Source: Leucoraja ocellata (taxonomy: Eukaryota). Taken from it: DNA of 64,000 nt. The stretch is from contig JAWMAR010000424.1 in the NCBI GenBank assembly GCA_036785375.1, positions 372,001 to 436,000 on the forward strand. Reading direction: 5' to 3'. Below are positions 1 through 42,324 of this stretch, in pieces; within the stretch, counting starts at the first letter, position 1; the number at the start of each line of letters is the position of its first letter. The notes under the pieces are model-generated. The model ran no database searches and was not told the DNA's origin. It worked only from the letters and a program-made list of their open reading frames with translations. A program made the position numbers and the translations under genes.

Positions 1-309
1 AGGCTATTAAACCTGGCTCGGACAAAACTCTGATTATTAATAACCACTTTCTGCTATTTGCACTTTATTAGTTTATTTACTCACATGTGTATATATTTAT
101 ATCATGGTATATGGACACATTTATCTGTTTTGTAGTAAATGCCTCCTATTTTCTGTGTGCTTAAGCAAAGCAAGAATTTCATTATCCTATACAGGGACAC
201 ATGACAATAAACTCACTTGAACACTCACTTGAACTTGAACACTTGAGTAGACATTGTGGGCTGAATAGCTTGTTCCTGCGCTGTTCAGTTAAGTTGCAGA
301 GAGGGGAGC

Positions 310-3105: not shown

Positions 3106-3244
3106 GAAATAAATGAAAAATTACAAGAATTAAAACACAATGATCCAGCTTCATTAATGGAGAGTCAAATGAACCAGTTCTATTCACTGTTGTGTTTTTT
3201 GGGCAGTTATATCACTAGAGGACAGACACACCTACTAAATATTT

Positions 3245-4692
3245 TTCTCTTAACATACCTGAAGAAGCTTTTACTCTCCTTTATATTCTTGGCCAGCTTC
3301 CCTTCGCACTTCATCTTTTAACCCCGTATTGTCCTTTTTGTTACCTTCTGTTGTCCTTTGAATGTTTCCCAATCCTGGTTTCCCGCTACTCTTTGCTATG
3401 TTATACACCTTTTCCTTTAGTTTTATTCCATCCCTAACTTCAATTGCTGCCATGGTCGCCTCTTACTCCCCTTAGAATCTTTCTTCCTCTTTGGAATGAA
3501 ATGATCCTCCATCTTCCTCTTTGGAATGAAATGATCCTGCATCTTCTGGATTATGTCCATAAATTCCTGCTATTGCTGTTCCACCGTCATTTCTGATAGG
3601 ATCCTTCTCCAGTCTACCTTAGCCAGCTCCTCTCTTATGCCTTCATAGTCCCCTTTGTTCAACTGCAACACTGACACTTCTGATTCAATCTTCTCCCTCT
3701 CAAATTGCAGATTAAAACATCATATTATGGTCACTATCTCCTAGCGATTCCTTAACCTTGAGTTCCCTTATCTGTTTCATTAGATAACACTAAATCCAGA
3801 ATTGCCTTCTCTCTGGTTGATTCCAGTGCAAGCTGCTCTAAGAATCCATATCGGAGGCACTCCACAAACTCCCTTTTTTGGGTCCAGAACCATCCTGATT
3901 TTCCCAGTCTACCTGCATATTGAAATCTCCCATAACCACAGTGGCATTAACTTTGTTACATGCCAATTTCATCTCCTGCTGCAACTTGCACCCTATATCC
4001 AGGCTACTGTTTGGGGGCCTGTAGATAACTCCCATTAATGTCTTCTCACCTTTACAATTCCTCAATTCTATCCACAGCAACTCTACATCGTCAGTCCCTA
4101 TGTCACCCCTCGCAAGGGACTGAATTTCATCCCTCACCAACAGAGCTACCACACCTCTTCTGCCCACCTGCCTGTCCTTTCTATAGGACGTATAACCGTG
4201 AATATTCGGTTCCCAGGCCCGATCCTCCTGCAGCCATGTCTCTGTAATCCCCACAATGCCATATCTACCAATCTCTAACTGAGCCTCAAGCTCATCCACT
4301 TTACTTCTTATACTTCATATATAATACTTTTAATCAATTACTCTCCTCACCTTTCACATCGATTCCTATTTCAGTTGGCCATACTCTCCTATCCCTTTGT
4401 GAGCTTCGTTAATTCTGGTGTCTTTCTTAACTTTTCCTGTGCTCTCCCTTTAACTCCATCCTTGTATTTCCAATTTGTCTTCCCCCTCGCCCGTCCCCCC
4501 CCCTCCTCGCCCGCCCCCCCCCCCCCCCCACCCCCCCCCCCCCCCCACTATTTAGTTTAAAGCCACCCGTGTAGCAGTGACAAGCTTGTCTGCCAGAATT
4601 CTGGTTCCCCGCCTGTTAAGGTGCAACCCGTCCCTTTTGTACAATTCACCCTTACCCCAAAGCAGATCCCAGTGGTCTAAGAATCTAAATCC
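3245..4692 (-). mobile_element. CR1 LINE fragment (APE endonuclease region)
   Basis: GITETWL, GVIYRPP, VMGDFN. Confidence 0.82.
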
Positions 4693-8000: not shown

Positions 8001-11000
8001 TGCAGAGGTTTATCGGGATGGTTAATTTCTACTACCGACTCATCCCGTCAGCAGCCACCATCATGCAGCCGTTGTTCCAATGTCTGGCCGGTAAGCCTAA
8101 GGGCCTGGTCTGGTCCAAGGAGGCGGAGAAGACGTTCGAGGGGGCTGACACTGCATTAGTCAATGCCACTATGCTGGAACACCCTAGGGCGTCAGCCCAA
8201 ACGGCCCTCACCATGGACGTCTCCGACGTCGTGGTAGGTGCCGTCCTCGAACAACGAGTAGGTAGCCGCGGGGTGCCACTGGCATTTTTCAGCAGGCAAC
8301 TGCGAGCCCCCGAAGTTAAGTATAGCGCTTTCGATTGGGAACTCCTCACGCTCTACCTAGCGACCAGCCATTTCCGATAACTTCCTAGAGGGGCGCGCAT
8401 TCTCCGCATTCAAGGACCACAAGGTGTCCGATCCCTGGTCTGCCAGGCAGCAGAGGCACCTGGCCTACATTTCCGAATTCACATCTGATATTCGGCATGT
8501 GGCGGGGAAGCTGAACGTTGTGGCTGACGCGCTGTCCCGTCCGGCAGCACCCGGAGTTTCAACGTTAAGTCTAGGTGTGGATTATGAGGAGCTGGTCGCT
8601 GCCCAACAGGCAGATGTTGGTATGGAGGTTTACCGCAATGCTGAGTCAGGCCTTAAGTTGTCCAAGGTGCCCTGCAGCGTCACCGGCGTGCGAGTCCTTT
8701 GCGATGTCTCCACGGGCAAAGCCCGTCCCATTGTCCCGGTTGCTTGGAGGCGTCGGATTTTCGACACTATCCACAGCCTAGCGCACCGGTCCATTCGCGC
8801 CACCTCTGCCTTGGTCACGGCCAAGTTCGTCTGGCATGGGTTATGGAAGCATGTCGCAGCATGGGCCCGTTCGTGCATCCCATGCTAGACTTCCAAGGTA
8901 CAGATTCATGTGTGCCCGCCCGTGCAGGATTTCGCTGTTCCAGACGGCAGGTTCCTGCACATCCATGTCGACCTGGTGGGTCCCTGACTATCGTGGACAG
9001 GTTTAGCAGGTGGGCGGAGGCAATACCGTTAAAGGATACCTCCGCTGAAGCTTGCGCGCGGGCCATCAACTCGCATTGGATCGCTCGTTTCGGGGGTCCC
9101 TTTCCGATATCACTACTGATCGTGGGGCCCAGTTCACGTCCTCCATGTGGTGTGGTATGGCGCAGCTGTACGGGGCGAAGCTGCACCAGACCACCGCGTA
9201 TCACCCGGAGTCCAACGGTTTGGTTGAGAGTTTCACAGGCACCTCAAGTCGGCATTGAAAGTCTGGCTCACCGGCCCCGATTGGGTCGACCAGTTGCCTT
9301 GGGGTCTCCTGGGCATCAGAACTATGCCTAAGGAAGAACCCAACGCCTCCTCGACCGAGCTTGTTTACAGCTCAGTTTTGCGGGTACCTGGGGATTTTCT
9401 GCCCGTCCCCCGGGATCAGGAGGTCCCGACTTCAGTGGTACTAGCTGACCTTCGCGAGCGCGGGTCGTCCGCGGTGCATGTGCCTACTATGTTACGGGAT
9501 TGTACTTCTGTTTTCCTTCGTAGGGATGTTCACCGCTCGCCGTTACAGCGGGTGTACGAAGGTCCATACAGGGTGCTGAGGACTGGTACCTCGACGTTCA
9601 CGTTGGACATGGGTGGCAGGGAGAAGTTTGTCTCCGTGAGCCGCCTTAAGCCAGCCTACATCGATGAGGATAGCCCGGTGGCTGTGGCCACTCCGCGGCG
9701 TAGAGGGCATCCGCCGGCTGTTTTGCCGTCCTCTGCACCTGTTATCCCCAGTTATGTTTCACCGGTCCCCTCTGTTATGCCCGTTCCTCGTTCGCGTTTG
9801 TCGCATCCCTCCGGTTCTGTTTCGCTAGACCTGAATGTTACGCTCGCCCCGCGACCTTGGACTACGCGTTCCGGTCTGACCGTCCGGTTATCCGTGCGTT
9901 TCCGTACGGGGGAGGGGATGGGGGGCATGTAGCGGCGCCTACTGGCGCACGCAGGTATCGAACCCGGCGTTCATAAGCCGCGGTCACGTGACTCGGGAGG
10001 GGCTGCTTGTTTTCGCGCGGTTTTGCTTTCGCGCGTTAGTTCAGTGCTGACCACCGTTGTGGCCAGACGTGTCGTGAGAGCCTGTAAACTGAGAAGTGAT
10101 TTTCTGAATAAAAAATTGTTTGTAAACTCAGTTGTCGTTCTTGAGACCGCCAAAGTACCATTATTATCATTACCATTGTTACTGCAGAATCTGAATGTAA
10201 AGTCCTGACATTTATTACAGATCATGTTACACTTGATTTGTAACTTTGCCAATCAGTAAAGAGTGGACTTTGATAAGAAATGTATAAATAGACTGTACAA
10301 CCTTTAATTCATTTTGTACTTTGTCGTGCAAATACTTATTGCTTGTAGGTTAATTGGCCCCTGGTGTGCAGGAAGTGAATGACAAAGTTGGATGACATAG
10401 AGCTACTGTGAACGGGTGATCGATGGGCTGCGTGGAATCGATGGGCCAAAGGGCTGCAGCTTTCAATCAATCAATATGCAGAAGGCCCTTCAGCCCATGA
10501 GCTAGCACAGAGGCAGCTAGCACAGAGGAAAGTTGTCAGTATGGGGGGATGCTGCCATAATATTCCCCCCTCACTTATAACGGACTGGGAACACGGGAAC
10601 CCATACCACGGACCGGGAACATGGGAACCCATGCCACAGCCCGGGCACAGGGGAACATGGACTGGGATCACGGGAACATGGACTGGGATCACGGGAACAT
10701 AGACTGGGATCACGGGAACATGGACTAGGATCATGGAAACATGAACTGGGATCACGGGAACATGGACTGGGATCACGGGAACACGTACTGGGATCACGGG
10801 AACATGGACTGGGATCACGAGAACATGGAATGGGATCACGGGAACACGTACTGGGATCACGGGAACAAGGGCTGGGATCACGGGAACATGGACTGGGATC
10901 ACGGGAACATGGACTGGGATCACGGGAACAAGGACTGGGATCACGGGAACATGGACTGGGAACACGGGAACATGGACTGGGATCACGGGAACAAGGACTG

Positions 11001-14000
11001 GGATCACGGGAACATGGACTGGGATCACGGGAACATGGACTGGGAACATGGGAACATGGACTGGGATCACGGGAACATGGACTGGGAACACGGGAACATG
11101 GACTGGGATCACAGGAACATGGACTGGGATCACGGGAACAAGGACTGGAAACACGGGAACGGACTGGGATCACGGGAACGTACTAGGATCACGGGAACAA
11201 GTAGGTATGTTACAAAACCTACCTGAATCATCATTAGGAATCTGCCCTCAGCCATGTCGGCGATTTTGGCGCTGTTTGGAGGGGGCGGGTTTAAAACGCG
11301 ATTTTTACTAGGCTGTACTAATCGCACATGTTCAGCCTAGTAAATCATTAACGAAAAATCGCTGCAAGACCCGGTCGCAAAAGGTATTATTAGTTTTATA
11401 GGCCTCGATAATATAGTTCTAATAGATTTAAAATTACTGTTTCATCTCGCAACCATTCGCAGCCCCAGGGTTTTATAGAGCAAACAATTAAAGGTATGTA
11501 CCTTATTTTTACATTAAATGGGCCATATATATAACCCTATATATCAAATTATCTATAACGAATAGCTCATTTTGGGCTTTTTATATCCCGCAGTATTTTT
11601 CTCGGCACTTGAGGGCACTGATCCAGCGCTATGTCAACGTTCTAAACCGGCGCGTTCCACATGAACCCACTAGAAAGCCGATTTAAATGGGCATTTATTT
11701 ACAGCAATTGAACACTAAATTCCTTCCATTTGGCCTATAAATTAATGTAAATTAGATATAAAAATCATGTTATATTGTGAATTATTTGTGAATAATCTTT
11801 GGACAGGCTATTTAAAAATGTTAATCTTTCCTTAAGAAATGGCCTGTTGACTATCCAAGATCACAGCTTTTTTGTAATGTCCATTGAAAATCAATAGGGA
11901 ACAAGATGCTAATTTCCGAGTATGAAAATGGTCATAACTTTTTTAATACTTGAGATATGAAAGTGAATTTGGTGTCAAATTAAACTTATTGTTATGCTTT
12001 ATCTGATGGGATAAATTGCAGACTTGATTTTTTAAATCTCAAAATTTTGTAACATTGCTAGAACAAGGGCTGTGATCATGGCAACACGGACTGGGATCAT
12101 GGGATCATGGACTGGGATCACGGGAACCCACCACAGATCTGGAACACAGGAACCCACACCACGGACCAGAAATACGTGAACCTGCCCGAAAAGCCCACCC
12201 TGATAGGAGGGCCTGTGAGCATGTGGGCTGCGGGAGGGAGTACATGGCCTAGACGGGGGAGTGGGCCGCTGGAGGCCCTGCAACAGCCTGGGGCTCGGTT
12301 GGACCGGGTGCCGCTCCAAGAGACGGAGCGTTTGGACCTGATGCGGACTACAGCGGTGGAGCAGTGGCGGAGAACACCATGGCTACGCTTGGCCAGGCCA
12401 ACCCTGCAACACCATCAGCACAACGGGCCTTCATTGTCGTGTCAAGAACCCTGCACTCACAACAACCGGGACTTGGAAATGGTGTCAAACTGGTGACTCT
12501 AAACTGTCTCTGGACCACTGCTATACTGTTCATATCTCCTCGTTATCACCTCCTCCACAGCCAAAAATGGACCATTGTGCTGGCTCTGATCTGTTCTGTA
12601 CCTCTTCATATCTCTAGTTTCCCTCTCCCTTGACTCTCAATCTGAAGAAGGATCTCAACCCTAAACGTCACCTGTCCATGTTCTGCAGAGATGCTGCCTG
12701 ACCCGCTGAGTTACTCCAGCACTTTGTGTCCACCTTCGGTATAAACCAGCATCTGCAGTTCCTTCCTACACTAGTATGAACTTGTACTGTGCCTGAGATA
12801 TTTATCTAAGAGCTTATGTATAGTGATACTTGTACTAAACTGTATACAATAATGAATATCACTGCGCCTCAGTACATGTTACAAATAACGTGCCATTATT
12901 ATCATTACTAATGTTACTGCAGGATCTGAATGTAAAGTCCTGACATTTATCACAGATCATGTTACACTTAATTTGTAACTTTGCCAATCAGTAAAGAGTG
13001 GACTTTGATAAGAAATGTACAAATATACTGTACAACCTTTCCATTTTGTACTTTGCCATGCAAATAATTATTGGTACCATATAACCATATAACCATAACA
13101 ATTACAGCACGGAAACAGGCCATCTCGACCTTCTAGTCCGTGCCGAACACGTATTCTCCCCTAGTCCCATATACCTGCGCTCAGACCATAACCCTCCATT
13201 CCTTTCCCGTCCATATAACTATCCAATTTATTTTTAAATGATAAAAACGAACCTGCCTCTACCACCTTCACTGGAAGCTCATTCCACACAGCTACCACTC
13301 TCTGAATAAAGGAGTTCCCACTCATGTTACCCCTAAACTTCAGTCCCTTAATTCTCAAGTCATGTCCCTTTGTTTGAATCTTCCCTCCTCTCAGTGGGAA
13401 AAGCTTATCCACGTCAACTCTGTCTATCCCTCTCATCATTTTAAAGACCTCTATCAAGTCCCCCCTTAACCTTCAGCGCTCCAAAGAATAAAGCCCTAAC
13501 TTGTTCAACTTTTCTCTGTAACTTAGTTGCTGACACCCAGGCAACATTCTAGTAAATCTCCTCTGTACTCTCTCTATTTTGTTGACATCCTTCCTATAAT
13601 TAGGCGACCAAAATTGTACACCATACTCCAGAATTGGCCTCACCAATGCCTTGTACAATTTTAACATTACATCCCAACTTCTATATTCAATGCTCTGATT
13701 TATAAAGGCCAGCACACCAAAAGCTTTTTTAACCACCCTATCTACATGAGATTCCACTTTCAGGGAACTGTGCACAGTTATTCCCAGATCCCTCTGTTCA
13801 CCTGCTTTCCTCAATTCCCTACCATTTACCATGTACGTCCTATTTTGATTTGTCCTGCCAAGATGTAGCACCTCACACTTATCAGCATTGAATTCCATCT
13901 GCCATCTTTCAGCCCACTCTTCCAACTGGCATAAATCTCTCTGTAGACTTTGAAAATCTACTTGATTATCCACAACCCCACCTATCTTAGTATCATCTGC

Positions 14001-25860: not shown

Positions 25861-28507
25861 AAAATGGGGAAAATGCATATAAAAACATTCCACCCCAGTG
25901 TAGCGAGAATGCATCTACTGCTACTGCCCCTGGGTCTGGTTCCCATGAAACATACTTTGATAACTGGTGATTCAATCTGGATGTAAACAAATCAATGTCT
26001 GGTACACCATACCGAGTGACAATCTCTTTGAATATTTCACGATTCAACATCCATTCTGTGTTGTCATTGAATTTTTGTGACCTGGTGTCCGCCACCATGT
26101 TAAATCTACTGGTAGGTAGATAGCTGAAATCCAGATGTTTCTTGTAATACACCAGTGGCAAATAAGGTTAGACAACTTATCACATGATACCGATTTGATT
26201 CCACCCACGTGATTAATGTATGCTACTGCTGTAGTATTGGCAATCTGAAGCTGCACATGCAAATCATGCATATTAGTACAATACGCTTTTAGGCCATAGA
26301 GTGCACCCAACAAATCTAAATAGTTAATACCATGTGATTGAAGAAGTAATGCATATTGCATCTGCCACCACAGCTGGAGATGGTATCAGTAGCTCCCCAT
26401 CCTAGAGCACTAACATCAGTTTGTAAAACAACTGAATGTCTGTCAATCCGCATTTTACCGGTGCAAAGCGAAATATTTGCTATCCACCATAGTAACTCAG
26501 CAACGGCTTCAGCTGGTAACTATTAAAATGCCCTGCATGACTTTTGAGTGTGTGCTCCTTTGCACGTTGCAAATTTTGATAATGCAGAGGTCCAAACTGT
26601 GCGGCTGGAAAAGCAGCCACTAATTTGCCAATTGTACTAGCAACCTGCCGAATAGAAGATTGTTGCTCATCAACGAGCGTGCTACAGGCTTCGAGTAACT
26701 CTAGCCTCTTGCCTGGAGGTAGAGTCACAGATATGTGAGTTGAATTAATGGTGAACCCCAAATAATCAATGACTCTGGATGGGATCAATTTGGATTTAAC
26801 AGGATGGATGAGAAACCCCAAACTCTCAAACATGCGTTTGGTAGCTGAAACAGATAATTCAGCTGATTTCTGAGTTTTGCCTATGATTAGGATATCATTC
26901 AAATAGGCCATTACAATATGATTTTGAGCCCGGAGAAGGCCCAACACTGGTTTTAACAATTTTGTAAATAACCTAGGAGCCGAAGTTAAATTATTAAGGC
27001 AATGCTTTAAACTGCCACAATTGCCGCATCCAGCTAAATTTCAAATATCTCCGATGATTGTGATGAATGGGTTCTGAATAGTATGCATCTTTGAGGTCTA
27101 TCATGTAGCATCCTTTAGAAACCAGCTGTTTGGCAGTAAGAAAGGTTTCCATTTTGAAATGTTTATACTGCATATGGAAGTTAAGCCGAATTAGTTCAAG
27201 AATAATTTGACACCCACCATCCTTCTTTTGTCTAGGAAATATATTAGAGACAAATTGGTGAGATTGATGAAAAGATTTCTCAATTACCCCTTTTTACGCT
27301 AGTGTTTCAATCTCAGTTTGTACATCTAAAGACTCTTGTTGTGAAAAAGACAATGTCCGGCTAGGTGTATACTGTGTAGGTGGACATAATTTGAAAATGA
27401 ATTCAATCCGGAGCCTCACCGTCCACCGACCTGGCAAATGCTGTTATTCCTGAAGCAAGGAGCTTGAGGATCTCTGAAGCTTTAGTTCTTGGGCTCTGAT
27501 TCCCGCTGCCATGTGCCCCCAGATTGGGTGGTTCACCGCTGGGACTTTGAGTGATGCACAATTATCCGGCGTTTGGTACTTTCTGGAGGTTTCCTCCATC
27601 GTGAGGTCTTGTAACTGATGAGATGCCATGTAATTTATGGTCCTGGCCAGTTCCAGCAGGTATGGCGAATTTGGATGCCATGCTTGTAGGTATGTTGCAA
27701 AACCTACCTGAAGCGTCGCTGAGAATCTGCCCCAGCCCGTGTGCTCGATTTTGGCGCTGTTTAGAGGGGGCGGGTTTAAAACGCGATTTTTACTAGGCTG
27801 TTCCAATCGAAGATTTTCAGCCTAGTAAATCATTAACGAAAAATCGCTGAAAGACCCCGTCGCAAAAGGTATTATTAGTTTTATAGGCCTCGAATAATAG
27901 TTATAATAGTTTTTAAATCACTCTCTCAACCCGCGACCTCTCGCAGCCCCAGGGTTTTATAAAGCAAACAACTAAAGGTATGTACCTTATTTGTACATTA
28001 AAAGCGGCTTCTTAAGACCCCTTTATACAAAGTTTACTATAGCGAGTAGTTCATTTTGGGCGCTTTATATCCCGCAGTACTTTTCTCAATATTTGAGGGC
28101 ACAAATCTACCGCAATGTGAACGTTCTAAACCAGCGCGTTCCACAGGGACCCACTGGAAAGCTGATTTAAAATGGGCATTTATTTACAGCAATTGAACAC
28201 TACATTCCTTCCATTTGGCCTATAAATTAATGTAAATGAGATATAAAAATCATGTTATATTGTGAATTATTTGTGAATAATCTTTGGACTCTTAGGCTAT
28301 TTAAAAATGTTAATCTTTCCTTAAGAAATGGATAGATGTTTATATCTAGTAATTGAATTTTGATTAAACATGATTTTCTTTTTTAGTATTTACTATTTGT
28401 TTTAGCGTTTAACTTTATAATTTCTACCTTTTTTTTCCAAAACTGCAAATAATAACTTGTTTCTGTTAATGCTGTTCAGTGTTTTTTTTTATTTACATTG
28501 TAAACAG

Positions 28508-31500
28508 ATGTCTCCAAAGAAGAAATGTAAAATTGTCAATCCAAAAGCACAGCCAGGCATAGCTAGAGTTCAACTTGAAGTGAATTTCTCTGTCATGCCC
28601 AAGTCTATGAGGGATCTTAAAAATGGACACATCTTGTACTTGTTTACCTCATTTGGAAAAAGTCTGCCTGAAACAGAGAAATCACTGAGTTCACATTTCT
28701 CTTTGTCGGATGCAGAAGGCTATTCATGTGCTGCTGTTAAGTTAAGAGTGCAGGCTCTCGTTAAACGGACTTTGCTTAAGTTTAAAAAACTCACCAATCC
28801 CAAGGAATTTGGAGCATTTATGGAAATTTGTGATGAAACTTTTAAACTTCAAAAAGGCAGTCGACACATTTCTTTAGATGACATTCCACTGCCTGGTGCT
28901 CAAGATCCTGAATTCTTGACATCAGCTGAAAGTCAAGTGCCCATATTTCAAGAGACCGAGGACATGGGCGATGACAGTCATAGTCTGCATGCTCCACTGA
29001 ATCTAGCAACGCCAACGACAGCTACTGCCTCACCTGAACCAATGCCATCGACATCTGGTGTTTCTACAAGATGTAGCAGAGAATTTCTAAGTCTTTCATC
29101 AAGGAAACAGATATTGAACAAAAGACTACAGTTTGTGTCCGAATCCAGGGCTGCTCTTTCAACAAAGTCTTGGTGAGACCACACCTGGAGTATTGCGTAC
29201 AGTTTTGGTCTCCAAATCTGAGGAAGGACATTATTGCCATAGAGGGAGTGCAGAGACGGTTCACCAGACTGATTCCTGGGATGTCAGGACTGTCTTATGA
29301 AGAAAGACTGGATAGACTTGGTTTATACTCTCTAGAATTTAGGAGATTGAGAGGGGATCTTATAGAAACTTACAAAATTCTTAAGGGGTTGGACAGGCTA
29401 GATGCAGGAAGATTGTTCCCGATGTTAGGGAAGTCCAGGACAAGGGGTCACAGCTTAAGGATAAGGGGGAAATCCTTTAAAACCGAGATGAGAAGAACTT
29501 TTTTCACACAGAGAGTGGTGAATCTCTGGAACTCTCTGCCACAGAGGGTAGTTGAGGCCAGTTCATTGGCTATATTTAAGAGGGAGTTAGATGTGGCCAT
29601 TGTGGCTAAGGGGATCAGGGGGTATGGAGAGAAGGCAGGTACGGGATACTGAGTTGGATGATCAGCCATGATCATATTGAATGGCGGTGCAGGCTCGAAG
29701 GGTCGAATGGCCTACTCCGGCACCTAATTTCTATGTTTCTATGTTTCTATGTATCACACAAAGATCAGTGAACTTAGGGCACGGTTGAAAACTCCCAAAC
29801 GTATAATTAATCAAGCCTTAAAGAGAAAGCAAAAGCAAATAGATTTAAAGGACAGAAAGATTCAGGAACTCAAAACCAAATTACATGATAACACTTTGGC
29901 ACGAGAGCTCTCTAACACCAAGGCAGAGTTTTTGAAACTTAAAAAAGCACACAGACAATTGCTGATATTTCGTGGCAGTACGAAAAAGAGGAAAATTGTT
30001 TCAATTCAACAGTTCAGAAAATGTCAAGTTTATTTAAGACAGGGAAGAGGATGTGAGACGCCTCGAATTTGACATTCTTGTCCTCAAAGAAACAATCAAA
30101 ACTCTGCAGGCTGCCAGTATTGTCAAGGCAAAGGTGGGCCAGAAAACTTACTCCTCAACAATAAGGATGCATGTGTTTGACTGTATTGTAAACAAAACTC
30201 CCACAGCAAACATTCCAATCCTGATAAGCCAGTTCTACAAGCGGAGTGGACTTCATCTGGATCATGTTCCACAACGCAGTGCAGTTGAAGTTATGGCCCG
30301 AGAATTGGGGGCTATTGCTGAGTTGCAAACAGCAGAGATGCTCCTTGCAACAAAGGGTTTGACTGTGGGTTTTGACGCAACCACCCATGAAGAGATCCAC
30401 ATTAACAGCGTTCATTTCACCACCACAAACAAATGTCTCTCTGCAGCAGTCGAGGAATTAGCTGGTGGGACTGCTGAGGACTATGCACAACATATTTGTG
30501 AAACAATTGACAATTTATGTAAAACCTACACTTATTTCAATCTGCAAGCAAATTATCAAGAAACCAGACAAAATATGATCGCCAACATTTCAAACACAAT
30601 GAGTGACCGGTGTGCAGCAAATCATGCTGCTATTAGAATTGTGAGTAGTGAGTGGGGTAAATATTTGAACGAGCTCTACTGCCACTTGCATCCTCTTGAC
30701 TCCATTGCTACATCAGTTCGCTCAGCCCTAAAAATGCAGAAACAATCTGGAGGACAATTCTTGTTTGGGAAAGACTGTCTAGCAGTAAATGCCATTCTGC
30801 AGATGAGCAAGCTTCATTATAAAAACGGAGAAGTGGACCCAAAAGGATTTGTCGCATTTGTAGATGACAGGAACATCCCCCGAGGTGTCCTCCCACGGTA
30901 TCGTGGCAACAGATTGCACATACTGTTTCACATTAGTGGCAAGCTAATAGAACATTATGATGACTTTGTTGCCCTGCTGAATAGCGGAATATCCTGTGGG
31001 GGGTTGAAAAGCGCCATCCTCCATGACTTCACCCAGGCTGAAGCAAAAGTAGAACTTCAGATATTGGGCTTACTTGGCAAATATCTGACTGGGCCTTGGA
31101 TGAAGCGCTTCTACACTTCAAGCCAGAATCAAATCAACCATGTTGATGGCATCAAAGTGGTTAAAGGGGTGATTGCTGCTCTAAAGGAAGCCACAGAAGA
31201 TCCAGAGGAATTGATATTGGCAAGGGAAGATTTCTTCAGTGAGGAGGTACATCTTGACGCCACATTGACAAAACTTCGGGAGCTACCAGTACATCCACAG
31301 TTCAGTTCAAAGATGAGGAGCTGTCTTCAAGCTGTCATCATTGTGTTGGAGAGGCAGTATTGTAAATACTTTGAACTTGATGTTACTGAGAAACTGAAGG
31401 AGGAGACTGCATCAGCAAGATCACACAACATTGATGCGGAGGAGATAATGGGGATGTTTAGTTCATCGAAACAGAAATCTCCCAATGCCACCATGTGTTA

Positions 31501-32095
31501 TTTGTCATGTAGGATGCGGGCCTGCAAGAATAGAACAGTCACCTTCCTTGATAATCTCGAGGAGCATCGTAGGGAGGAGGTGCTCTGTAAGGCAGTGACA
31601 TGGGGGAGAGTGCAGAGGAACAGACGGAAGAAAAAACAGAAGGAATTGAGAGCAGAAATCATCAAGCGACAGAACGGCAAGGAGCATGCTCCAGACACGA
31701 AAGAGAGGAAAAAACTAGGGAAAGAATTGAAAGAGACTGATTTAGACAACATTCGCAGAGATTATCCGAATTTGGACTATTCCAAATGTGATGATCTACA
31801 CGACATTATTAGTGGGAAAGTAGTTGGCAGAAAGGCATGCCATGCATGGTTTGAAGATCAAAAACTTGTAGTTTACAATGCCAAAATTGAAAAATTGAGG
31901 AAAAACAACGTGTACAGAGTTGCTTATTGGTTGCAGTCTGAGGGGTATGATGATGCTACTGATTATGATATGCCAATGTACCGACTAGCAACTGATCTTC
32001 TCCATAAAGACTTGGGTATTTTGCTAGAAATTGTAATTTATTTACCTATCCATAAAGGACTTACAGCATATTATACAATAATATTAAAGTTCTGA
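28508..32095 (+). pseudogene. Transposase gene (about 1000 aa when repaired), disrupted by a CR1 insertion and one frameshift near 30040
   Basis: MSPKKKCK start after an aacag| acceptor. Removing the CR1 restores ...STKYHTKISE.... Coiled-coil-like region, then VGFDATT (D), TMSDRCAAN (D), CHLH (CxxH) and NIDAEE (E). Confidence 0.8.
29167..29750 (+). mobile_element. CR1 subfamily A 3' fragment inserted in the transposase
   Basis: [12 protein letters not shown]...KAGTGY and (TTTCTATG)n tail. Confidence 0.93.
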
Positions 32096-33497
32096 TCTTG
32101 AGAATATCACATTTTTGAATTTTCAAGGCAGTCTGGTTGTTTATTACTATTTCTGTCACATCGGTCAATTTTGTAATTAGCTACAATTAGGTAATTAGCT
32201 AATTATATGCTTTAATTTCAGGTCATCCAAGTAAGATTGTTTTATATTTTTTCATGATTGCTTCAATCTATGATGTGAAAATTTCATTCAGTTCTCTTAA
32301 TTCTTAAGAAATTTACGGGCTTTTGACTATCCAAGATCACAGCTTTTTTGTAATGTCCATAGAAAATCAATAGGGAACAAGATGCTAATTTCCGAGTATG
32401 AAAATGGCCATAACTTTTTTAATACTTGAGATATGAAAGTGAATTTGGTGTCAAATTAAACTTATTTTTATGCTTTATCTGATGGGATAAATTGCAGACT
32501 TGATTTTTTAAATCTCAAAATTTTGTAACATTGCTAATGCTTGGCACCCCTAACTCCTGGCTTCCTTGCCTGGAGGTATGCTCATCAGCTATACCTCCGA
32601 ACTCGGAGTCAGAACAAAACTGACTCCGTGTACTCTCTTCCTCCAAGAGGGAGACATTATGCAGCCCTCTACAGGTGCTGCTGCCACGGGTCCCCGAGGA
32701 GACCCGCGGATATAAGGCTCGTCTTCCTCGAGCACATCGTGATGGAGCATCCTCTCCATCAGGAGCTCCATCCTGGACAGCCGCCCAAAAACGGCATCCA
32801 TCATCAGAGTCAATGGGCCTATTCAACTTTTTAGTGGCTTTCCGGCCCACCGGAGTAGCCATGGTGCCTTCCACCGGCACCAAGTCGGAAACCACTGGCC
32901 GTGCCGCCAGTGACTCTGAAGGCGAGAGGGACGGCCGCCCACTACCCGCACTCCCGCGGTGTTCTGTAGCTGTTCTCGCAGCAGACCGCCTCGACCTTCC
33001 TTTTACCTTTTTCTCCATAACGGTCTTGCTCCTGTAAACAAGATTGCCCGACCGGAGAAAAGACCTCAGCTAAGTTTAAAACTTACCTCAGGGTTTTTAA
33101 CTTACCGCTGTTGGAGCTGCGCCCTGCTAGCCCGTCAGTGCGCCATGCGTCAGACGTTATAACGCGCATGCGGACTGGCGGGGTTCTTCACGGAATCAAT
33201 CACGTGACTCTGAAGTAAAACATGCCATTCGCTTTTTTCACTGCCTGCTGCATCTGCATGCCTACTTTCAATGACTCGTGTACCATGACACCCAGGTCTC
33301 GTTGCATCTCCCCTTTTCCTAATCGGCCACCATTCAGATAATAGTCTACCTTCCTGTTTTTGCCACCAAAGTGGATAACCTCAAATTTATCCACATTATA
33401 CTGCATCTGCCATGCATTTGGCCACTCAGCCAGCCCATCCAAGTCACCTTGCAGCCTCCGGGCATCCTCCTCACATCTAACACTGCCCCCCAGCTTT

Positions 33498-34607: not shown

Positions 34608-34966
34608 ATGTCTCCGAAGAAGAAATGCCAAATGCCCAGCAAAAGAGACTGTTTTAGACCGCATTCGCTGAGGTTATCCGAATTTGGACTACTTCAAATG
34701 TGGTGATCTACAGAATGGGAAAGTAATGGGCAGAAAGGCATGTCATGCGCGGTTTGAAGAGCAAAAACATGTAGTTTACAATTCCAAAATTGAACAGTTG
34801 AGGAAAGGCAAGGTGTACAGAGTTGCTTGTTGGTTACAATGTATGATGATGCTACTGATTATGATATGCCAATGTATCAGCCAGCAACTGATCTTCTCTA
34901 TAAAGACTTGGTCTTTTGCTAGAAATTGCAATTTCTTTACCTGTCTGTTACGGACTAACAGCATAT
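34608..34966 (+). pseudogene. Internally deleted relic of the same transposase (N-terminus fused to C-terminal region)
   Basis: ATGTCTCCGAAGAAGAAATG resembles 28508 onward; 34642-34966 resembles 31730-32071. Confidence 0.8.
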
Positions 34967-35998
34967 AATAGTAAGATTAAACGAGAACAGTTACCAGTTT
35001 GAAGTTTGATCTGTATTTTATGAGGAGTTACGATGAGGGATTACGTGAAGAACCCGCTCAGCACGCATGCGCGGCATACTTCAAAGCAGCGGTGTGGAAT
35101 CACAGATAGACACAGTTATTGAAGTAAACATAGTAAAGATAAGGAGGCATCAGTTTTTGAATTTGACCCATATTATTGAGGGTGGGAGCGGAGGGCACGT
35201 AATCCCGCATCGTAACTCAAAATATACAGATCAAACTTAAAACTGGTAAGTTCTCGTTTAATCTTACGATTTTACTTCAGAGTAATTCCGTGAAGATTTC
35301 AAAGCTCTGTGATTTCAAACCGTGTAACAGTTATTACTACATCACTGCCGAAGTCTTTGAGGGAGGAAGTGTGTTATTGTAACCAACCAATGAATCTGTT
35401 TGTAGACAAACACAATGGTATTTTTTAACAATAACAACAAAGAAATTAAATTGCTCCCCTGGGCTTAAATTAAATATTTGCAGTCTGTAAAATCTTTCCT
35501 GCAAATAAAACAAGTTTTGCCAACGGCTTATTATAAAATTTCTGATTGGTCTTTCCCCCCACCATCCTGCTGTAGCCAGGATGTGGTTTATAGGCACGTC
35601 CATTCTTTTAGCCATCGACGTGGATGCTGCCCTGGTGGAATGAAATTTGTACATGTTAGTTTTTATCCCAGCAGCTTTTAGCACCTGCTTGAGCCATCTT
35701 GAAATGGCTCGTCACCCGACCATAAGGTTTTTTTATGACTGACCCACAAGGTTTTTCATCTCCCTCGAATATTTTGGTTGTGTCTATGTAGGATAGTAGG
35801 GTCATGGCACATAACCGTGATTCTGGCGGGTAAACCTGGAATTCCACGACAGGATTAGGTGTTCCTGTACTGCTCTGTTTGATCATTCCCTGGATAACGA
35901 CAGAGATCTGGTCTGGAGATGTGAGCATGGTGTCCAGCCGCAATAGGTGTAGTGACTGGACCCTCTGTGCAGATACAAGTGCCATCAACATGAGTGTT

Positions 35999-38900
35999 CA
36001 AGAAGGAACTGCAGATGCTGGAAGATCGAAGGTACACAAAATTGCTGGAGAAACTCAGCGGGTGCAGCAGCATCTATGGAGCGAAGGAAATAGGCGACGT
36101 TTCGGGCCAAAACCCTTCTTCAGACTGATGGGGGGTGGGGGGAGAAGGAAGGAAAATGGGAGGAGGAGCCCGAGGGCGGGGGGATGGGAGGAGACAGCTC
36201 GAGGGTTAAGGAAGGGGAGGAGACAGCAAGGGCTAGCAAAATTATTTCTAAAAGGGTTGACGGTGGATATGCAATGGAAGGCATTTAAAGACTGCATGGA
36301 TGAACTACAAAAATTGTTCATCCCAGTTTGGCAAAAGAATAAATCAGGGAAGGTAGTGCATCCATGGATAACAAGGGAAATCAGGGATAGTATCAAAGCA
36401 AAGGATGATGCGTACAAACTAGCCAGAAAAAGCAGCATACCGGAGGACTGGGAGAAATTCAGAGACCAGCAGAGGAGGACGAAGGGCTTAATTAGGAAAG
36501 GAAAAATGGATTATGAAAGAAAACTGGCAGGGAACATAAAAACTGACTGCAAAGGTTTTTATAGATATGTGAAAAGAAAGAGATTAGTTAAAACAAATGT
36601 AGGTCCCTTGCAGTCAGAAACAGGTGAGTTGATCATGGGGAACCAGGATATGGCGGACCAATTGAATAACTACTTTGGTTCCGTCTTCACTAAGGAAGAC
36701 ATAAATGATCTGCCGGAAATAGCAGGGGTCCGCGGGTCAAAGGAGGTGGAGGAATTGAGTGAAATCCAGGTTAGTCGGGAAGTGGTGTTGGGTAAATTGA
36801 ATGGATTAAAGGCCGATAAATCCCCAGGGCCAGATAGGCTGCATCCCAGAGTACTTAAGAAAGTAGCTCCAGAAATAGTGGATGCATTAGTAATAATCTT
36901 TCAAAACTCTTTAGATTCTGGAGTAGTTCCAGAGGATTGGCGGGTAGCAAACGTAACCCCACTTTTTAAGAAGGGAGGGAGAGAGAAAACGGGGAATTAC
37001 AGACCAGTTAGCCTAACATCGGTAGTGGGGAAACTGCTAGAGTCAGTTATTAAAGATGGGATAGCAGCACATTTGGAAAGTGGTGAAATCATTGGACAAA
37101 GTCAGCATGGATTTACGAAAGGTAAATCATGTCTGACGAATCTTATAGAATTTTTCGAGGATGTAACTAGTAGCGTGGATAGGGGAGAACCAGTGGATGT
37201 GGTGTATCTGGACTTCCAGAAGGCTTTCGACAAGGTCCCACATAAGAGATTAGTATACAAACTTAAAGCACATGGCATTGGGGGTTCAGTATTGATGTGG
37301 ATAGAGAACTGGCTGGCAAACAGGAAGCAAAGAGTAGGAGTAAACGGGTCCTTTTCACAATGGCAGGCAGTGACTAGTGGGGTACCGCAAGGCTCAGTAC
37401 TGGGACCCCAGCTATTTACAATATATATTAATGATCTGGATGAGGGAATTGAAGGCAATATCTCCAAGTTTGCGGATGACACTAAGCTGGGGGGCAGTGT
37501 TAGGTGTGAGGAGGATGCTAGGAGACTGCAAGGTGACTTGGATAGGCTGGGTGAGTGGGCAAATGTTTGGCAGATGCAGTTTAATGTGGATAAATGTGAG
37601 GTTATCCATTTTGGTGGCAAAAACGGGAAAGCAGATTATTATCTAAACGGTGGCCGATTGGGAAAGGGGGAGATGCAGCGAGACCTGGGTGTCATGGTAC
37701 ACCAGTCAGTGAAGGTAGGCATGCAGGTGCAGCAGGCAGTAAAGAAAGCGAATGGTATGTCGGCTTTCATAGCAAGAGGACTTGAGTATAGGAGCAGGGA
37801 GGTTCTACTGCAGTTGTACAGGGTCTTGGTGAGACCACACCTGGAGTATTGCATGCAGTTTTGGTCTCCAAATCTGAGGAAGGACATTATTGCCATAGAG
37901 GGAGTGCAGAGAAGGTTCACCAGACTGATTCCTGGGATGTCAGGACTGTCTTATGAAGAAAGACTGGATAGACTTGGTTTATACTCTCTAGAATTTAGGA
38001 GATTGAGAGGGGATCTTATAGAAACTTACAAAATTCTTAAGGGGTTGGACAGGCTAGATGCAGGAAGATTGTTCCCGATGTTGGGGAAGTCCAGGACAAG
38101 GGGTCACAGCTTAAGGATAAGAGGGAAATCCTTTAAAACCGAGATGAGGAGAACTTTTTTCACACAGAGAGTGGTGAATCTCTGGAACTCTCTGCCACAG
38201 AGGGTAGTTGAGGCCAGTTCATTGGCTATATTTAAGAGGGAGTTAGATGTGGCCCTTGTGGCCAAGGGGATCAGAGGGTATGGAGAGAAGGCAGGTACGG
38301 GATACTGAGTTGGATGATCAGCCATGATCATATTAAATGGCGGTGCAGGCTCGAAGGGCCGAATGGCCTACTCCTGCACCTAATTTCTATGTTTCTATGT
38401 TTCTATGTTTATAAAATTGGGAGAATTCAACGTTAATGCCATCAGGACGCAAACTACCCAAGTGGAATATGAGGTGCTGCTCCTCCAATTTCCGGTGTTG
38501 CTCACTCTGGCAATGGAGGAGACCCAGGACAGAGAGGTCGGATTGGGAATGGGAGGGGGAGTTGAAGTGCTCAGCCACCGGGAGGTCAGGTTGGTTATTG
38601 CGGACTGAGCGGAGGTGTTCGGCGAAACGATCGCCCAACCTCCGCTTAGTCTCCCCGATGTAGATCAGCTGACATCTAGAGCAGCGGATGCAGTAGATGA
38701 GGTTGGAGGAGATACAGGTGAACCTTTGTCGCACCTGGAACGACTGCTTGGGTCCTTGAATGGAGTCGAGGGGGGAGGTGAAGGGACAGGTGTTGCATTT
38801 CTTGCGGTTGCAACAGAAAGTGCCCGGGGAGGAGGTGGTACGGGAGGGAAGGGAAGAATTGACAAGGGAGTTGCGGAGGGAGCGGTCTTTGCGGAAGGCA

Positions 38901-39585
38901 GACATAGGGGGAGATGGGAAGATGTGGCGAGTGGTGGGGTCACGTTGGAGGTGGCGGAAATGGCGGAGGATTGTGTGTTGTATTTGCCGGCTGGTGGGGT
39001 GAAAGGTGAGGACCAGGGGTATTCTGCCCTTTTTGCGAGAGCAGGGATGGGGAGAGAGAGCAGTGTTGCGTGGTATGGATGAGACCCTGGTGCGAGCCTC
39101 ATCTATGGTGGCGGAGGGGAATCCCCGTTCCCTGAAGAACGAGGACATTTCCGATGACCTGGTATGGAATGTCTCATCCTGGGAACAGATGTGGCGTAGG
39201 CGGAGGAATTGGGAGTAGGGGATGGAGTCTTTATAGGGGGCAGGGTGGGAAGACGTGTAGTCCAGATAGCCATGTGAGTCAGTTGGTTTGTAGTGTATGT
39301 CGGTCAGAAGTCTGTCCCCTGCGATGGAGATGGTGAGGTCAAGGAATGGTAGGGAAGTGTCGGAAATGGCCCAGGTGTATTGGAGTGCCAGATGGAAGTT
39401 GGTGGTGAAGTGGATGAAATCAGTCAGTTGTGTGTAGGTGCAGGAGGTGGCTCCAAAGCAGTCGTCAATGTAACGAAGGTAGAGGTCGGGGATGGGGCCC
39501 TGGTACGTACTGAAGAAGGATAGTTCAACGTACCCGACAAAGAGGCAGGCGTAGCTGGGGCCCATGCGTATGCCCATAGTTGAGT
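35999..39585 (-). mobile_element. Penelope-like element (RT + GIY-YIG endonuclease), 5'-truncated, with 17-bp TSD
   Basis: MGPSYACLF, RYIDD, NLIYCIRC...YIGETKR. CCATCAACATGAGTGTT occurs at 35982-35998 and 39586-39602. Confidence 0.9.
36244..38410 (+). mobile_element. Young CR1 subfamily A LINE (uninterrupted RT ORF) nested in Penelope
   Basis: Open RT frame to 38308, (TTTCTATG)n tail, AAAATT on both flanks. Confidence 0.95.
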
Positions 39586-42324
39586 CCATCAACATGAGTG
39601 TTTTGAGCATAGATGGTTCCAGGTTGAGGGATCTGGCTGGTGGCCATCCCCTGAGGTATGTCAGGACCACACTGACATCCCATATATGGGTGTACCTTGG
39701 TCTAGGGGGTTAGAGTTGTAAATACCCTTCATTAGTTTGACCACCAGCTGGTGGGAACCCATGGCCTGTTGGCCTGGAGCTGGTTTTAAATAGACAGGCA
39801 GGGCAATAACCATGTCATGGAGTATTGGGAACCATGGCTGTATAGGCCAGTCGGGTACTATCAAAATACCTTAAGCAGAGTCCATTTGTACTGTGCGTAG
39901 TCCCCAGCTGATGAGGCAGAAGGGAGGATGTGCATAGAAGAAGAATTTCCCCAATCCAGCGCGAACGCATCTACCGTGCTGCCTCAGGGTATGGTTCCCA
40001 AGAGACACACATAGGTACCTGGTGATTTAGCCTTGATGCAAATAAATCGATATCTGGCGTGCCCTATTGCTTGATAACTTTTGTGAAAAAATTTTGGGGG
40101 TTTTAATATCCATTCGATGTTGTCATTAAATTTACGTGACCTGGTGTTTGCCACTGTATTTAGCTTACCTGGCAGGTAAGTTACTGATAGCCAAATATGT
40201 CTTTGGACACACCATTGCCAAATTGTGTTGATCAACTTGTCGCATGATACCGATTTTATGCCGCCCATATGGTTAATGTAGGTCACCACCGCAGTATTAT
40301 CTATTTATAACCGTACATGCAAGTGATGCATATTTATGCATATGCTTTTAAACCATAAAAGTCACCCAACATCTCTAGATAATTAATGCCCAGTGTAAGT
40401 GGTAATGATGATTCTAGGTTAGACCATCTACTACTTGTGCTGGATATAGAGTTAGTTGCTCCCCAGCCTTGAGCACTGGCATCTGTTTGGATAACTGACG
40501 TAGGGTTAGTGATGATAATAGGCTGAAACTATGTCAAACGTTTTTTGCCCACCACTGTAGTTCTGATATTACTTCAGTGGGTAACTTCATGAAACGATCA
40601 TAATGACCTGTATGTCGTTTATGGTACAACGGTCGGAATTATGTAGCCGGAAATGCTGCTACCATTTTCCCAATTACTCTGTTACTTGTCGAGTAGTTGG
40701 TAGTTTGTTGACCATTAAATTGTTGCATGATTGTGCCAATTCAACTATGTTGTCTCTTGGCAATGTTACAGTCACGTAGACTGAATTAATTGTGAAGCCC
40801 AAGAAGTCCATGATTGTGGATGCTTCAACTTAGATTTATCTGGATGTAAGACAATCCCAGGGTTTTGAATAACTGTTTGGTAGCTGAACAGCTAACATAG
40901 TCAATTTCATGGTCTTGCCTACCATTTAGGATATCATCAAGATATGCCATGACAATATGTTTTTGTCTTCTGAATATTGCCAGAGCTGGTTTTAGTGTCT
41001 GGGTGACACTCTTGGGCTGATGTGAACCCATTGGCTAACGCTTTAAACTGCTATAGCTGCCCCATCCAGGTATATTTCAGGTATCTGCGATGATCCTTGT
41101 GAATGGTACTAAATAGTAAACATCTTTAAGATGAATGCTTGCCATGAAGTATCCTTTGGAATTTAGTTGTTTGGCAGTAACAACCGGTTCCATTTTGAAA
41201 TGTATATACTTAACAAACATCACCCATTGCTTCTCTCCAGAGATGCTGCCGGTCCCACTGAGTTACTCCAGCTTTGTGTCCATCTTCAAATGATGTCACG
41301 CGCTCCAGACGGCTTCACAGGACCATCTCGTCTCGCGTAATTTGCGTGCCAAGGACACGTAAGTGGGACAGGCCCTTAACTCTAAACTAAACTAAACATT
41401 GTTAGCTGTGGGCTCGGTGAAAACTCGTATAATTCATACAAGGTGTCTAACTCGTTCTCACCTTGACCACAATTAACAATGGACTATTGAGTCTAAGGAA
41501 GGGTCTCGATACACGAAACGTCACCCATTCCTTCCATCCAGAGAGGCTGCTTGTCCCGCTGAGTTACTCCAGCATTTTGTTTCTATCCTCTACAACAATA
41601 AAAGGCTTGGCGGAACTGTGTTTGAATGTGACAGGGAAATTAACAAAGGTATGAATCCAGAGAGGTAAAAACTCATCAAATCATACAGATCAGAAACAGG
41701 AATTAATCCAATCTATATGCTGATTAAAATTAAAAGCACACATGATAATTGCTGCTGCATTTCTGTTCTTTCCATGTTCTCCCATTTACAGTTTGTACTG
41801 TCAATAGGCAACATGTTTGAGGTCTTTACAGTTTAGTTTATGGTCACGTGTACCGAGGTGCAGTGAAAAGCTTTTGTTGCATAATCAAGCCATTTACAGT
41901 GTATAGATACATGATAAGGGAATAACGTTCAGGGCAAGATCACCAATGAGGTAGATAGTAGTTCAGCACTGCTCTCTGGTTGTAGTAGGATGGTTCAGTT
42001 GCCAGATAACAGCTGGGAAGAAACTGTCCCTGAATCTGTGCGTTTTCACACTTCTATACCTTTTGCCTGATGGGAGAGAGAAGAGGAGTGGCCAGGGTTC
42101 GACTCGTCCTTGATTATGCTGCTGGCCTTGCCGAGGCAGCGTGAGGTATAAATGTAGTCAATGGAAATGTGATAGACACAAATAGAAATAGACAATAATA
42201 ATAATAATAATAATAATTTTATTTATAGAGCACTTTAAAAACAAACGTAGCTGCAACAAAGTGCTGTACATCACTAATCATTGACAAAAAAGTTAATACA
42301 CACCAAAAATAACAATCAAAAGAA

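Follow-up and report, generated by a model that had tools for sequence, protein, structure and literature searches.

The locus analysed here, which lies in a window of 64,000 nucleotides of Leucoraja ocellata DNA (the whole stretch examined), raises the question of which group of cut-and-paste transposons generates its 7-bp target site duplications (TSDs), and what its atypical transposase (TPase) may do. The answer that we consider probable is a defunct member of a young family of high copy number with an exact 7-bp TSD, whose 978-aa TPase combines a predicted hAT fold with a Spindlin-like Tudor domain, likely to bind methylated lysine or arginine on chromatin. The features identified in the window are presented in Table 1.

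Table 1. Transposon features in the window (positions counted from its first nucleotide).
Feature	Position	Strand	Remarks
Non-autonomous copy of 859 bp (11202-12060), with 7-bp duplications	11195..12067	+	
Left 7-bp TSD	27680..27686	+	ATGCTTG, direct repeat
Left 16-bp terminal inverted repeat (TIR)	27687..27702	+	
Full-length element	27687..32536	+	4850 bp, including the CR1-type insert
TPase codons 1-220, covering the NLS-like start, the N-terminal domain (predicted helical) and a disordered linker	28508..29166	+	
LINE insertion, presumably CR1-type	29167..29750	+	5'-truncated, 584 bp
TPase coiled-coil segment (about aa 220-315)	29751..30037	+	Ends at the frameshift caused by a 2-bp loss
TPase aa 317-975: RNase H-like core (carrying a helical insertion domain), plus a second long helix and the Tudor domain	30038..32014	+	
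Predicted catalytic Asp 1 (D429)	30374..30376	+	Asp in 79/80 aligned sequences
Predicted catalytic Asp 2 (D506)	30605..30607	+	Asp in 79/80
CxxH motif (C531, H534)	30680..30691	+	Both residues in 80/80
Predicted catalytic Glu (E784)	31439..31441	+	80/80
Spindlin (Spin/Ssty)-like Tudor domain, predicted (about aa 908-978)	31811..32023	+	Extra base at about 32014 shifts the last three codons
Right 16-bp TIR	32521..32536	-	
Right 7-bp TSD	32537..32543	+	ATGCTTG
Remnant of a third non-autonomous subfamily (~1.9 kb, older), truncated	34608..34981	+	

The original prediction recognised two insertions with shared termini, each flanked by an exact 7-bp duplication. This was confirmed: when repeats of k=2 to 11 were tested, an exact direct repeat was found only at k=7 for both elements (GAACAAG on both sides of the shorter one). 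The TIRs have the predicted length of 16 bp but are imperfect, since positions 4-5 differ between the two ends in every copy, with a third mismatch in the full-length copy of the window. The termini of the family read TAGG/TAGC-[TA]ATGTT, and full-length copies free of inserts measure 4236-4266 bp.

The full-length element of the window is a dead copy. It is interrupted by an insertion that we take to be a CR1-type LINE, whose coordinates agree with those predicted and which shares 98% identity with other copies in the window. The only frameshift originally noticed, near position 30040, was located as a loss of 2 bp after position 30037; the count of one did not hold, however, as one extra base at about position 32014 replaces the last three codons, the frame continuing to position 32092. 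The encoded protein also carries ~32 aa differences from residues common to the unbroken copies, some of them at well-conserved sites. Neither this second frameshift nor the conserved C-terminal Tudor domain was part of the original prediction.

At the level of the genome, the family is a young, high-copy DNA transposon with more than 10,000 copies in a vertebrate. Its 22-nt left end and 23-nt right end have 7,095 and 10,582 exact occurrences, respectively; these counts are not due to chance, because the reversed controls gave 0. The mean pairwise difference among 18 full-length copies is 2.0%, and the open 978-aa frame is kept in 6 of the 17 other full-length copies, which bears out the prediction of a recently active vertebrate cut-and-paste family. 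It had also been described as easily reconstructable; reconstruction is superfluous because natural unbroken copies exist.

Sampling of copies by their TIRs revealed an exact 7-bp TSD in 88 of the 93 that have both ends (81 of 86 once duplicated loci were removed) and in 13 of 17 full-length copies. Exact TSDs of 4-6 or 8-10 bp were present in none of the 93, so the predicted 7-bp length stands and 8-bp duplications are absent from this sample. The target sites are loosely palindromic (C-W-T-A-W-A-G). Flanks resembling CpG islands were found at 9 of 86 insertions, compared with 40 of the 640 windows that served as controls (p 0.17), the mean CpG o/e was 0.48 in insertion flanks versus 0.42 in controls (bootstrap difference 0.00-0.11), and comparison with a paired local control gave p 0.53; the CpG bias of the insertion sites is at most weak.

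The NLS-like start, the coiled coil, the D..D..CxxH..E core and the lack of a BED or THAP finger, all of them predicted, were supported. The N-terminal domain (about aa 13-118) is predicted to be helical; aa 1-344 contain only three isolated conserved Cys/His columns and no Pfam match that would indicate a BED finger, and no THAP-like Cys/His pattern occurs. The invariant R608 is followed by Leu in 77 of 80 sequences, and this pair may correspond to R318-W319 of Hermes, in a register that we infer. Pfam gave no match above the curated cut-off for the window fragments, the unbroken protein or 44 family proteins and fragments, and the hAT dimerisation domain (PF05699) was found neither in the unbroken protein nor in these 44. 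Sequence searches of the PDB yielded coiled-coil noise or nothing and no TPase match, and the ESM Atlas contained no usable match for the N-terminal domain.

Structure prediction was more informative. The model of the complete TPase (pLDDT 85) suggests that the core adopts a hAT (Hermes-type) RNase H-like fold with a helical insertion domain. Foldseek ranked Hermes first (E 2e-6), ahead of the P element (4e-4) and ISCth4 (2e-3). In a VIA comparison, 338 residues were aligned with Hermes (Z 19.2, rmsd 3.4), spanning its residues 136-609 and thus reaching the region that corresponds to the dimerisation domain. An independent wide fold search gave Z values of 17.1 for Hermes, 10.6 for ISCth4, 8.3 for the P element and 6.8 for Transib. 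Identity to Hermes is 9-13%, and no other hAT was present among the fold matches, nor any Kolobok or eukaryotic MULE structure, so the ranking does not extend to these two; hhalign against a host hAT set gave a probability of 1.4%, a weak comparison as the set comprised 8 host ORFs, some of them not hAT. The CxxH motif is common to other insertion-domain TPases and is not confined to hAT. The predicted fold would place the family beside hAT, and not with P or Mutator.

The C-terminal tail is predicted to form a Tudor barrel related to Spin/Ssty repeats. Its model has a pLDDT of 91, and Spindlin chains constitute most of the top Foldseek rows, at a weak best E of 0.018. In the wide search, Spindlin came first with a Z of 6.5 (caution line 8), followed by the Tudor domain of plant RDM15 (6.4). 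A profile of the tail matched the Spin/Ssty repeats of the host with P 84% and a score of 30.7, while 40 column shuffles scored at most 13.4. The tail falls below the threshold of Pfam Spin-Ssty, and the ESM Atlas offered leads below 0.9, namely a PTM/DIR17 Tudor (0.77) and Spin/Ssty (0.76). The domain is retained in 73 of 80 long homologues.

Like the Spin/Ssty repeats of Spindlin1-4 (PF02513; PDB 4uy4, 5jsg, 4mzg), the tail has a five-stranded Tudor barrel (predicted in its case), a G-x-x-[IV]-x-H-x-[WF] start, a D..GDL-like end and aromatic residues at three cage positions. The aromatic cage of Spindlin1 is described as comprising F141, W151, Y170 and Y177 (PMC3967050). Residues W920, Y929 and Y946 of the TPase, aromatic in 99% of about 111 rows, align with host residues that match the first three of these by spacing; the candidate for the fourth is Y959 (90% aromatic), in a register that is not fixed. 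Spindlins differ in having three tandem repeats, whereas the TPase carries a single, fused repeat, a putative reader.

The tail may not be a histone reader at all, but may bind DNA or a protein partner, or stabilise an oligomer, as SH3-type C-terminal integrase barrels do; we regard this as a possibility to be taken seriously, albeit the less likely one. The low fold scores are crowded with barrels that are not readers (TraI, CarD and the N-terminus of TnsB), the insertions lack a clear CpG-island bias and the fourth cage residue is not placed, all of which would suit such a role. It is opposed by the Spin/Ssty match, which comes from a sequence profile as well as from the fold, by conservation within the domain being highest at the aromatics of the cage positions, and by the best three Tudor matches of the wide search, all of which are methyl-lysine complexes. 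The reader interpretation could also be extended to a pan-animal cut-and-paste lineage, beyond the reach of hAT profiles, in which integration is steered or licensed by a functional methyl-histone reader of the Spindlin type, with unbroken young copies in this vertebrate and host Spindlin repeats that may share their origin with the transposon domain. We consider this wider reading doubtful. Targeting by means of chromatin readers is an established property of chromodomain retrotransposons, and a survey of transposon proteins fused to readers has been published (10.1101/2021.11.30.470311). In the freely accessible main texts searched, we found no description of a Spindlin-type Tudor domain on a DNA TPase.

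Within hAT-like transposons, hATw is a group with a 7-bp TSD, first seen in Hydra. The TSD of the present family would agree with this definition, for which no source text was found in the literature searched. The hAT superfamily is characterised by an 8-bp TSD (PMC4763223, PMC6004678), and a 2025 study by Kojima accepts subgroups with 5-, 6- and 7-bp TSDs inside it (PMC12730594). It is probable that the lineage is Repbase's hATw group and is thus already catalogued, because its close relatives are abundant in Hydra (many members, at 36-49% core identity), where hAT-hATw is a listed repeat class.

The family resembles Hermes (PDB 6dwz, 4d1q, 8edg, 2bw3) and other hATs in (i) the RNase H-like DDE core (predicted here), helical insertion domain and CxxH motif, and (ii) short imperfect TIRs, a single long ORF and many non-autonomous deletion derivatives. 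It differs from Hermes in its 7-bp TSD (8 bp in Hermes), the lack of a BED finger and of a Pfam hAT dimerisation match, the addition of a long N-terminal coiled coil and the C-terminal Tudor domain, a Leu at the probable Trp319 position, and an identity of about 10%. The hAT7 elements of rust fungi, which also have a 7-bp TSD, were classed as hAT by TPase similarity and cluster with fungal and plant Ac/Tam3 hATs (PMC12730594). In contrast, no sequence similarity to ordinary hATs is detectable in the animal lineage, and the 7-bp stagger therefore probably arose separately in the two. Elements of the divergent hATm clade also start with TAG, but their termini (TAGGGTG), 8- or 9-bp TSDs and PF05699 match (PMC6004678) distinguish them from the present family.

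It is unlikely, in our view, that the family represents a separate superfamily-level group of the hAT/P/MULE/Kolobok clan, neither a hAT branch nor the catalogued hATw. Such a rank would accord with the missing Pfam and profile links to hAT, with a TSD length, termini and domain architecture that differ from those of hAT, and with the 1,814 relatives, which include no named TPase among the names listed; yet Hermes exceeds all other folds by 6-8 Z units, with nearly its whole core matched. Published nomenclature points both ways: the text and supplement of the 2025 paper from a Repbase author name 7-bp hATs 'hAT7' and do not mention hATw (PMC12730594), whereas Repbase is said to hold hAT families annotated '7-bp TSD' (PMC4455052), and hAT-hATw appears in class lists for Hydra, rich in members of this lineage, amphioxus and snail. 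An affiliation with hAT, probably as hATw, is thus preferred.

Membership of the P superfamily, as a Galileo-type element, is highly improbable: Galileo elements also make 7-bp duplications and the P element takes second place among the Foldseek families, but its match in the wide search is far poorer (rmsd 7.5, versus 4.0 for Hermes), hhalign to host P-like proteins gave 0.2%, these host elements have DxxH in place of CxxH, and the family lacks both a THAP-like Cys/His pattern and a Pfam P-element domain.

For a hAT-like element with a Tudor-tailed TPase, transposition may be envisaged as follows. The TPase would bind the 16-bp ends, its helical N-terminal domain probably replacing the BED finger in DNA binding, and cleavage would be performed by D429, D506 and E784. 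Excision may proceed via hairpins on the flanking DNA, by analogy with hAT enzymes that bear CxxH, a motif reported to be required for hairpinning in Kat1 and located within Hermes' active site (PMC4763223, PMC7780238). The 3' ends would then be joined to the target 7 bp apart at the loosely palindromic sites; the complex is probably anchored on nucleosomes through the Tudor domain, with a target choice that is not sharply restricted. If the tail does read methylated histones, this would be a natural chromatin-guided cut-and-paste enzyme, relevant to transposon biology and vector design; if it is inert and the family simply hATw, the element belongs, as a well-documented member, to a group that has been catalogued and not studied. 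The young unbroken vertebrate copies make the Tudor-tailed architecture testable, and the strict 7-bp stagger allows a test of how the hAT fold determines TSD length and functions when no BED finger is present.

Relatives range from sponge and Hydra to teleosts; none was found in viral contigs (37 pattern matches, 0 confirmed). Among 61 metagenome loci (ends inspected in 30, and in 14 on a second pass) there was no clean pair of TIRs plus TSD, and the 7-bp TSD is therefore established for this genome alone. One metagenome relative (36% identity) has TAGGTATGT termini and no duplication, and another (59% identity) has the TAGGTATGT terminus at its right end only. Donor- and acceptor-like sequences upstream of the start codon hint at an intron; none was present there among the joints listed for four RNA runs, possibly of other species, in which coverage of the TPase core was low on both strands.

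The deletion derivatives of the element have multiplied in trans. The ~862-bp subfamily, to which the 859-bp copy of the window belongs, comprises ~640 bp from the beginning and ~234 bp from the end of the full element, and its members, like those of a ~1040-bp subfamily, differ by ~2% (median) from their own majority base. In the ~1.9-kb subfamily, the TPase start is joined to the Tudor-coding tail, and a separately translated Tudor-only protein was considered and rejected: its frame is intact in 6 of 24 copies, but selection on it is not apparent from a pN/pS of 1.4 (21 rows, each less than 8% diverged) or from the 28 indels, 20 of which are frameshifting. The 859-bp copy sits inside a 21-bp minisatellite.

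Both elements of the window are flanked by exact 7-bp direct repeats, and comparison of lengths from 2 to 11 bp showed that only 7 bp fits, as had been claimed for these insertions. The 16-bp terminal inverted repeats of the family were also borne out by comparison of the copies, the repeats being imperfect. The short element corresponds to the first ~640 bp of the long element joined to its final ~234 bp. The original prediction had described the long element as damaged by one LINE insertion and one frameshift; both were found, and a second frameshift, which alters only the last three transposase codons, had been overlooked. With this correction, the observation is confirmed. The long element differs by 2.6% from the majority base of the family and is the most divergent among the 18 copies compared.

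Features of the window (forward-strand window positions)
Feature	Position	Size or strand	Remarks
Short element	11202-12060		exact 7-bp flanking repeat each side
Long element	27687-32536		exact 7-bp flanking repeat each side
LINE insertion in long element	at 29167	584 bp	comparison with other copies
Frameshift in long element	after 30037	2-bp loss	comparison with other copies
Second frameshift in long element	about 32014	one extra base	comparison with other copies
Minisatellite	10517-11251	21-bp unit, at least 24 units	insertion target of short element
Arrays related to minisatellite	5182-5482		
Decayed reverse-transcriptase retroelement	26044-27686 and 32537-33069	minus strand	interrupted by long element; RVT_1 at 26483-27040
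LINE-type reverse-transcriptase frame	35834-38305	plus strand, 824 codons	
Frame with weak GIY-YIG match	38390-39709	minus strand	suggestive of Penelope-like element

The minus-strand frames flanking the long element appear DIRS-like. Sequences resembling a splice donor and acceptor bracket positions 27978-28507, immediately before the start codon; among the RNA-read joints listed, none corresponded to them.

In the whole genome (3.44 Gb), the left end (22 nt) occurs 7,095 times and the right end (23 nt) 10,582 times, while reversed-pattern controls gave zero. From the first 100 left-end matches on the list, 99 were retrieved; both ends were within reach in 93 and not in 6. Among the 93 two-ended copies, the 7-bp target site duplication (TSD) was exact in 88, with one mismatch in 3, two in 1 and three in 1, and none showed an exact duplication at 4-6 or 8-10 bp. 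The test set in advance, 7-bp rather than 8-bp TSDs in other copies, thus came out for 7 bp. Removal of duplicated loci left 81 of 86 exact. Twenty loci were also picked for their top-scoring protein matches; both ends were present in 17 (TSD exact in 13, one mismatch in 2, no duplication in 2). The preferred target is a loose palindrome, C-W-T-A-W-A-G.

The family is real, and it is young, because its copies have diverged little. Most are internal deletion derivatives, ~862 or ~1,040 bp long, that differ from their majority base by about 2%, and 18 full-length copies show a mean pairwise difference of 2.0% (0.4-3.8%). The 978-aa frame is kept in 6 of 17 other full-length copies, a fraction that applies to loci picked by best score and not genome-wide. 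Private changes of the full-length copies (26 synonymous, 68 non-synonymous; pN/pS 0.71) indicate nearly neutral decay once a copy has inserted. These data support the recent activity originally proposed as youth of the family, not as present activity.

Protein analyses were based on P0001, the transposase of an unbroken natural copy (residues numbered from Met 1). It contains no Pfam domain and has no transposase match among PDB sequences. Searches returned 132 and 1,814 relatives, respectively; those with names come from sponge, Hydra, molluscs, a brachiopod, a priapulid, echinoderms, a sea spider and three teleosts, and none bears a transposase name. The predicted D..D..CxxH..E core was recovered, with D429, D506, C531, H534 and E784 present in 79-80 of 80 aligned sequences, and the alignment has no conserved BED- or THAP-like Cys/His pattern, in agreement with the reported lack of such fingers. 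No significant match came out of a comparison of sequence profiles with hAT and P-like proteins of the host. In a midpoint-rooted FastTree phylogeny of 45 core sequences, P0001 clusters with a protein from a sea urchin (71% over 316 residues; support 0.86) and away from those of the three teleosts (48-58%), a placement that would fit horizontal transfer or old paralogy. The end sequence appears conserved across the lineage, since relatives on metagenome contigs, L238 (36% protein identity; 128-4335) and L227 (59%; 2896), keep the TAGGTATGT terminus. The sea-spider protein P0071, annotated as 'bric-a-brac 2', is largely made up of this transposase plus a BTB domain (PF00651), possibly a fusion or a gene-model merge. 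Numerous young P-element-like transposase frames, 712-843 codons long, also occur in the genome of the window (L132-L146).

The structure model of P0001 (pLDDT 85) comprises, in order, (i) a helical N-terminal domain, (ii) a disordered linker, (iii) a long coiled coil, (iv) the core, (v) a second long helix and (vi) a small beta barrel. Hermes, a hAT transposase of known structure, ranked first in three structure searches: E 2e-6 in the first, Z 19.2 (rmsd 3.4 over 338 residues) in the second, and Z 17.1 in the third, followed by ISCth4 (10.6), the P element (8.3) and Transib (6.8). The core is predicted to be hAT-type.

The family probably works like hAT, but it lacks the 8-bp TSD, the PF05699 match and the BED finger of textbook hAT elements. 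The hATw group is defined by a 7-bp TSD. The lineage is rather likely hATw; the family is probably a catalogued hAT-like branch. Repbase includes hAT families annotated '7-bp TSD' (PMC4455052), and fungal 7-bp hATs within the Ac/Tam3 cluster are named 'hAT7' (Kojima 2025; PMC12730594), in whose supplement hATw, hATm and hATx gave no match. hATm has TAG termini but 8-9-bp TSDs (PMC6004678), and hATx-6 combines 8-bp TSDs with a BED finger and a hAT domain (PMC8721813). The accessible text of three further papers uses hATw as a class label only (PMC12905397, PMC13465017, PMC6128900), and that of a Hydra genome preprint (10.1101/2024.03.13.584568) holds no information bearing on its definition.

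The unusual feature of the family, apparently unpublished, is a conserved Spindlin-like tail, predicted to be a Tudor domain. Residues 880-978 folded alone gave a confident Tudor-type barrel (pLDDT 91). Foldseek returned mostly Spindlin chains with weak E-values (best 0.018), and a wide structure search gave Spindlin-4 (Z 6.5), the RDM15 Tudor (6.4), TraI (5.9) and BAHCC1 (5.6), below the caution line of the tool. Independently of the fold, the family profile matched four host Spin/Ssty repeats (probability 84%, score 30.7; 40 column shuffles at most 13.4). W920, Y929 and Y946, 99% aromatic, align with host residues matching by spacing F141, W151 and Y170 of Spindlin1, which belong to its H3K4me3 cage (PMC3967050); the alignment places these three cage positions and not the fourth. 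The domain is retained in 73 of 80 long homologues. Among the papers listed by literature searches, none describes a Spindlin- or Tudor-bearing DNA transposase; a chromatin-evolution survey reports fusions with Chromo and PHD domains, among them a hAT-Chromo in a sponge (10.1101/2021.11.30.470311).

Reconstructed 600-bp flanks of 86 independent insertions were compared with 640 control windows, taken at 40 loci with even spacing. CpG o/e was 0.48 versus 0.42, with a 95% bootstrap interval of 0.00-0.11 for the difference, and CpG-island-like windows numbered 9/86 versus 40/640 (p 0.17); near and far flanks at 49 loci gave p 0.53. By CpG content of the flanks, no strong promoter targeting was seen among surviving copies. 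An insertion bias would be hidden by post-insertion selection or by a mark without a CpG link.

Observed for the family are its ends, the 7-bp stagger and the multiplication of non-coding derivatives. By analogy with what is described for Hermes and Kat1 (PMC4763223, PMC7780238), excision would proceed via flanking hairpins using CxxH, followed by strand transfer at positions 7 bp apart. The N-terminal domain may bind the transposon ends, and the tail may tether the transposase to chromatin. The candidate position of Hermes Trp319, its register inferred, holds Leu; Kat1 tolerates loss of Trp there.

A third, older non-autonomous subfamily of ~1.9 kb, represented at window positions 34608-34981 and by L289-L312, has a 7-bp TSD where intact. 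In it, transposase codon 15 is fused to codon 881, so that exactly the Tudor-coding tail is retained, with the main start codon out of frame and a second one in frame. The resulting 107-110-aa frame, kept in 6 of 24 copies, decays neutrally. RNA reads of related organisms span the joint; in one run, 18 of 19 had the same direction.
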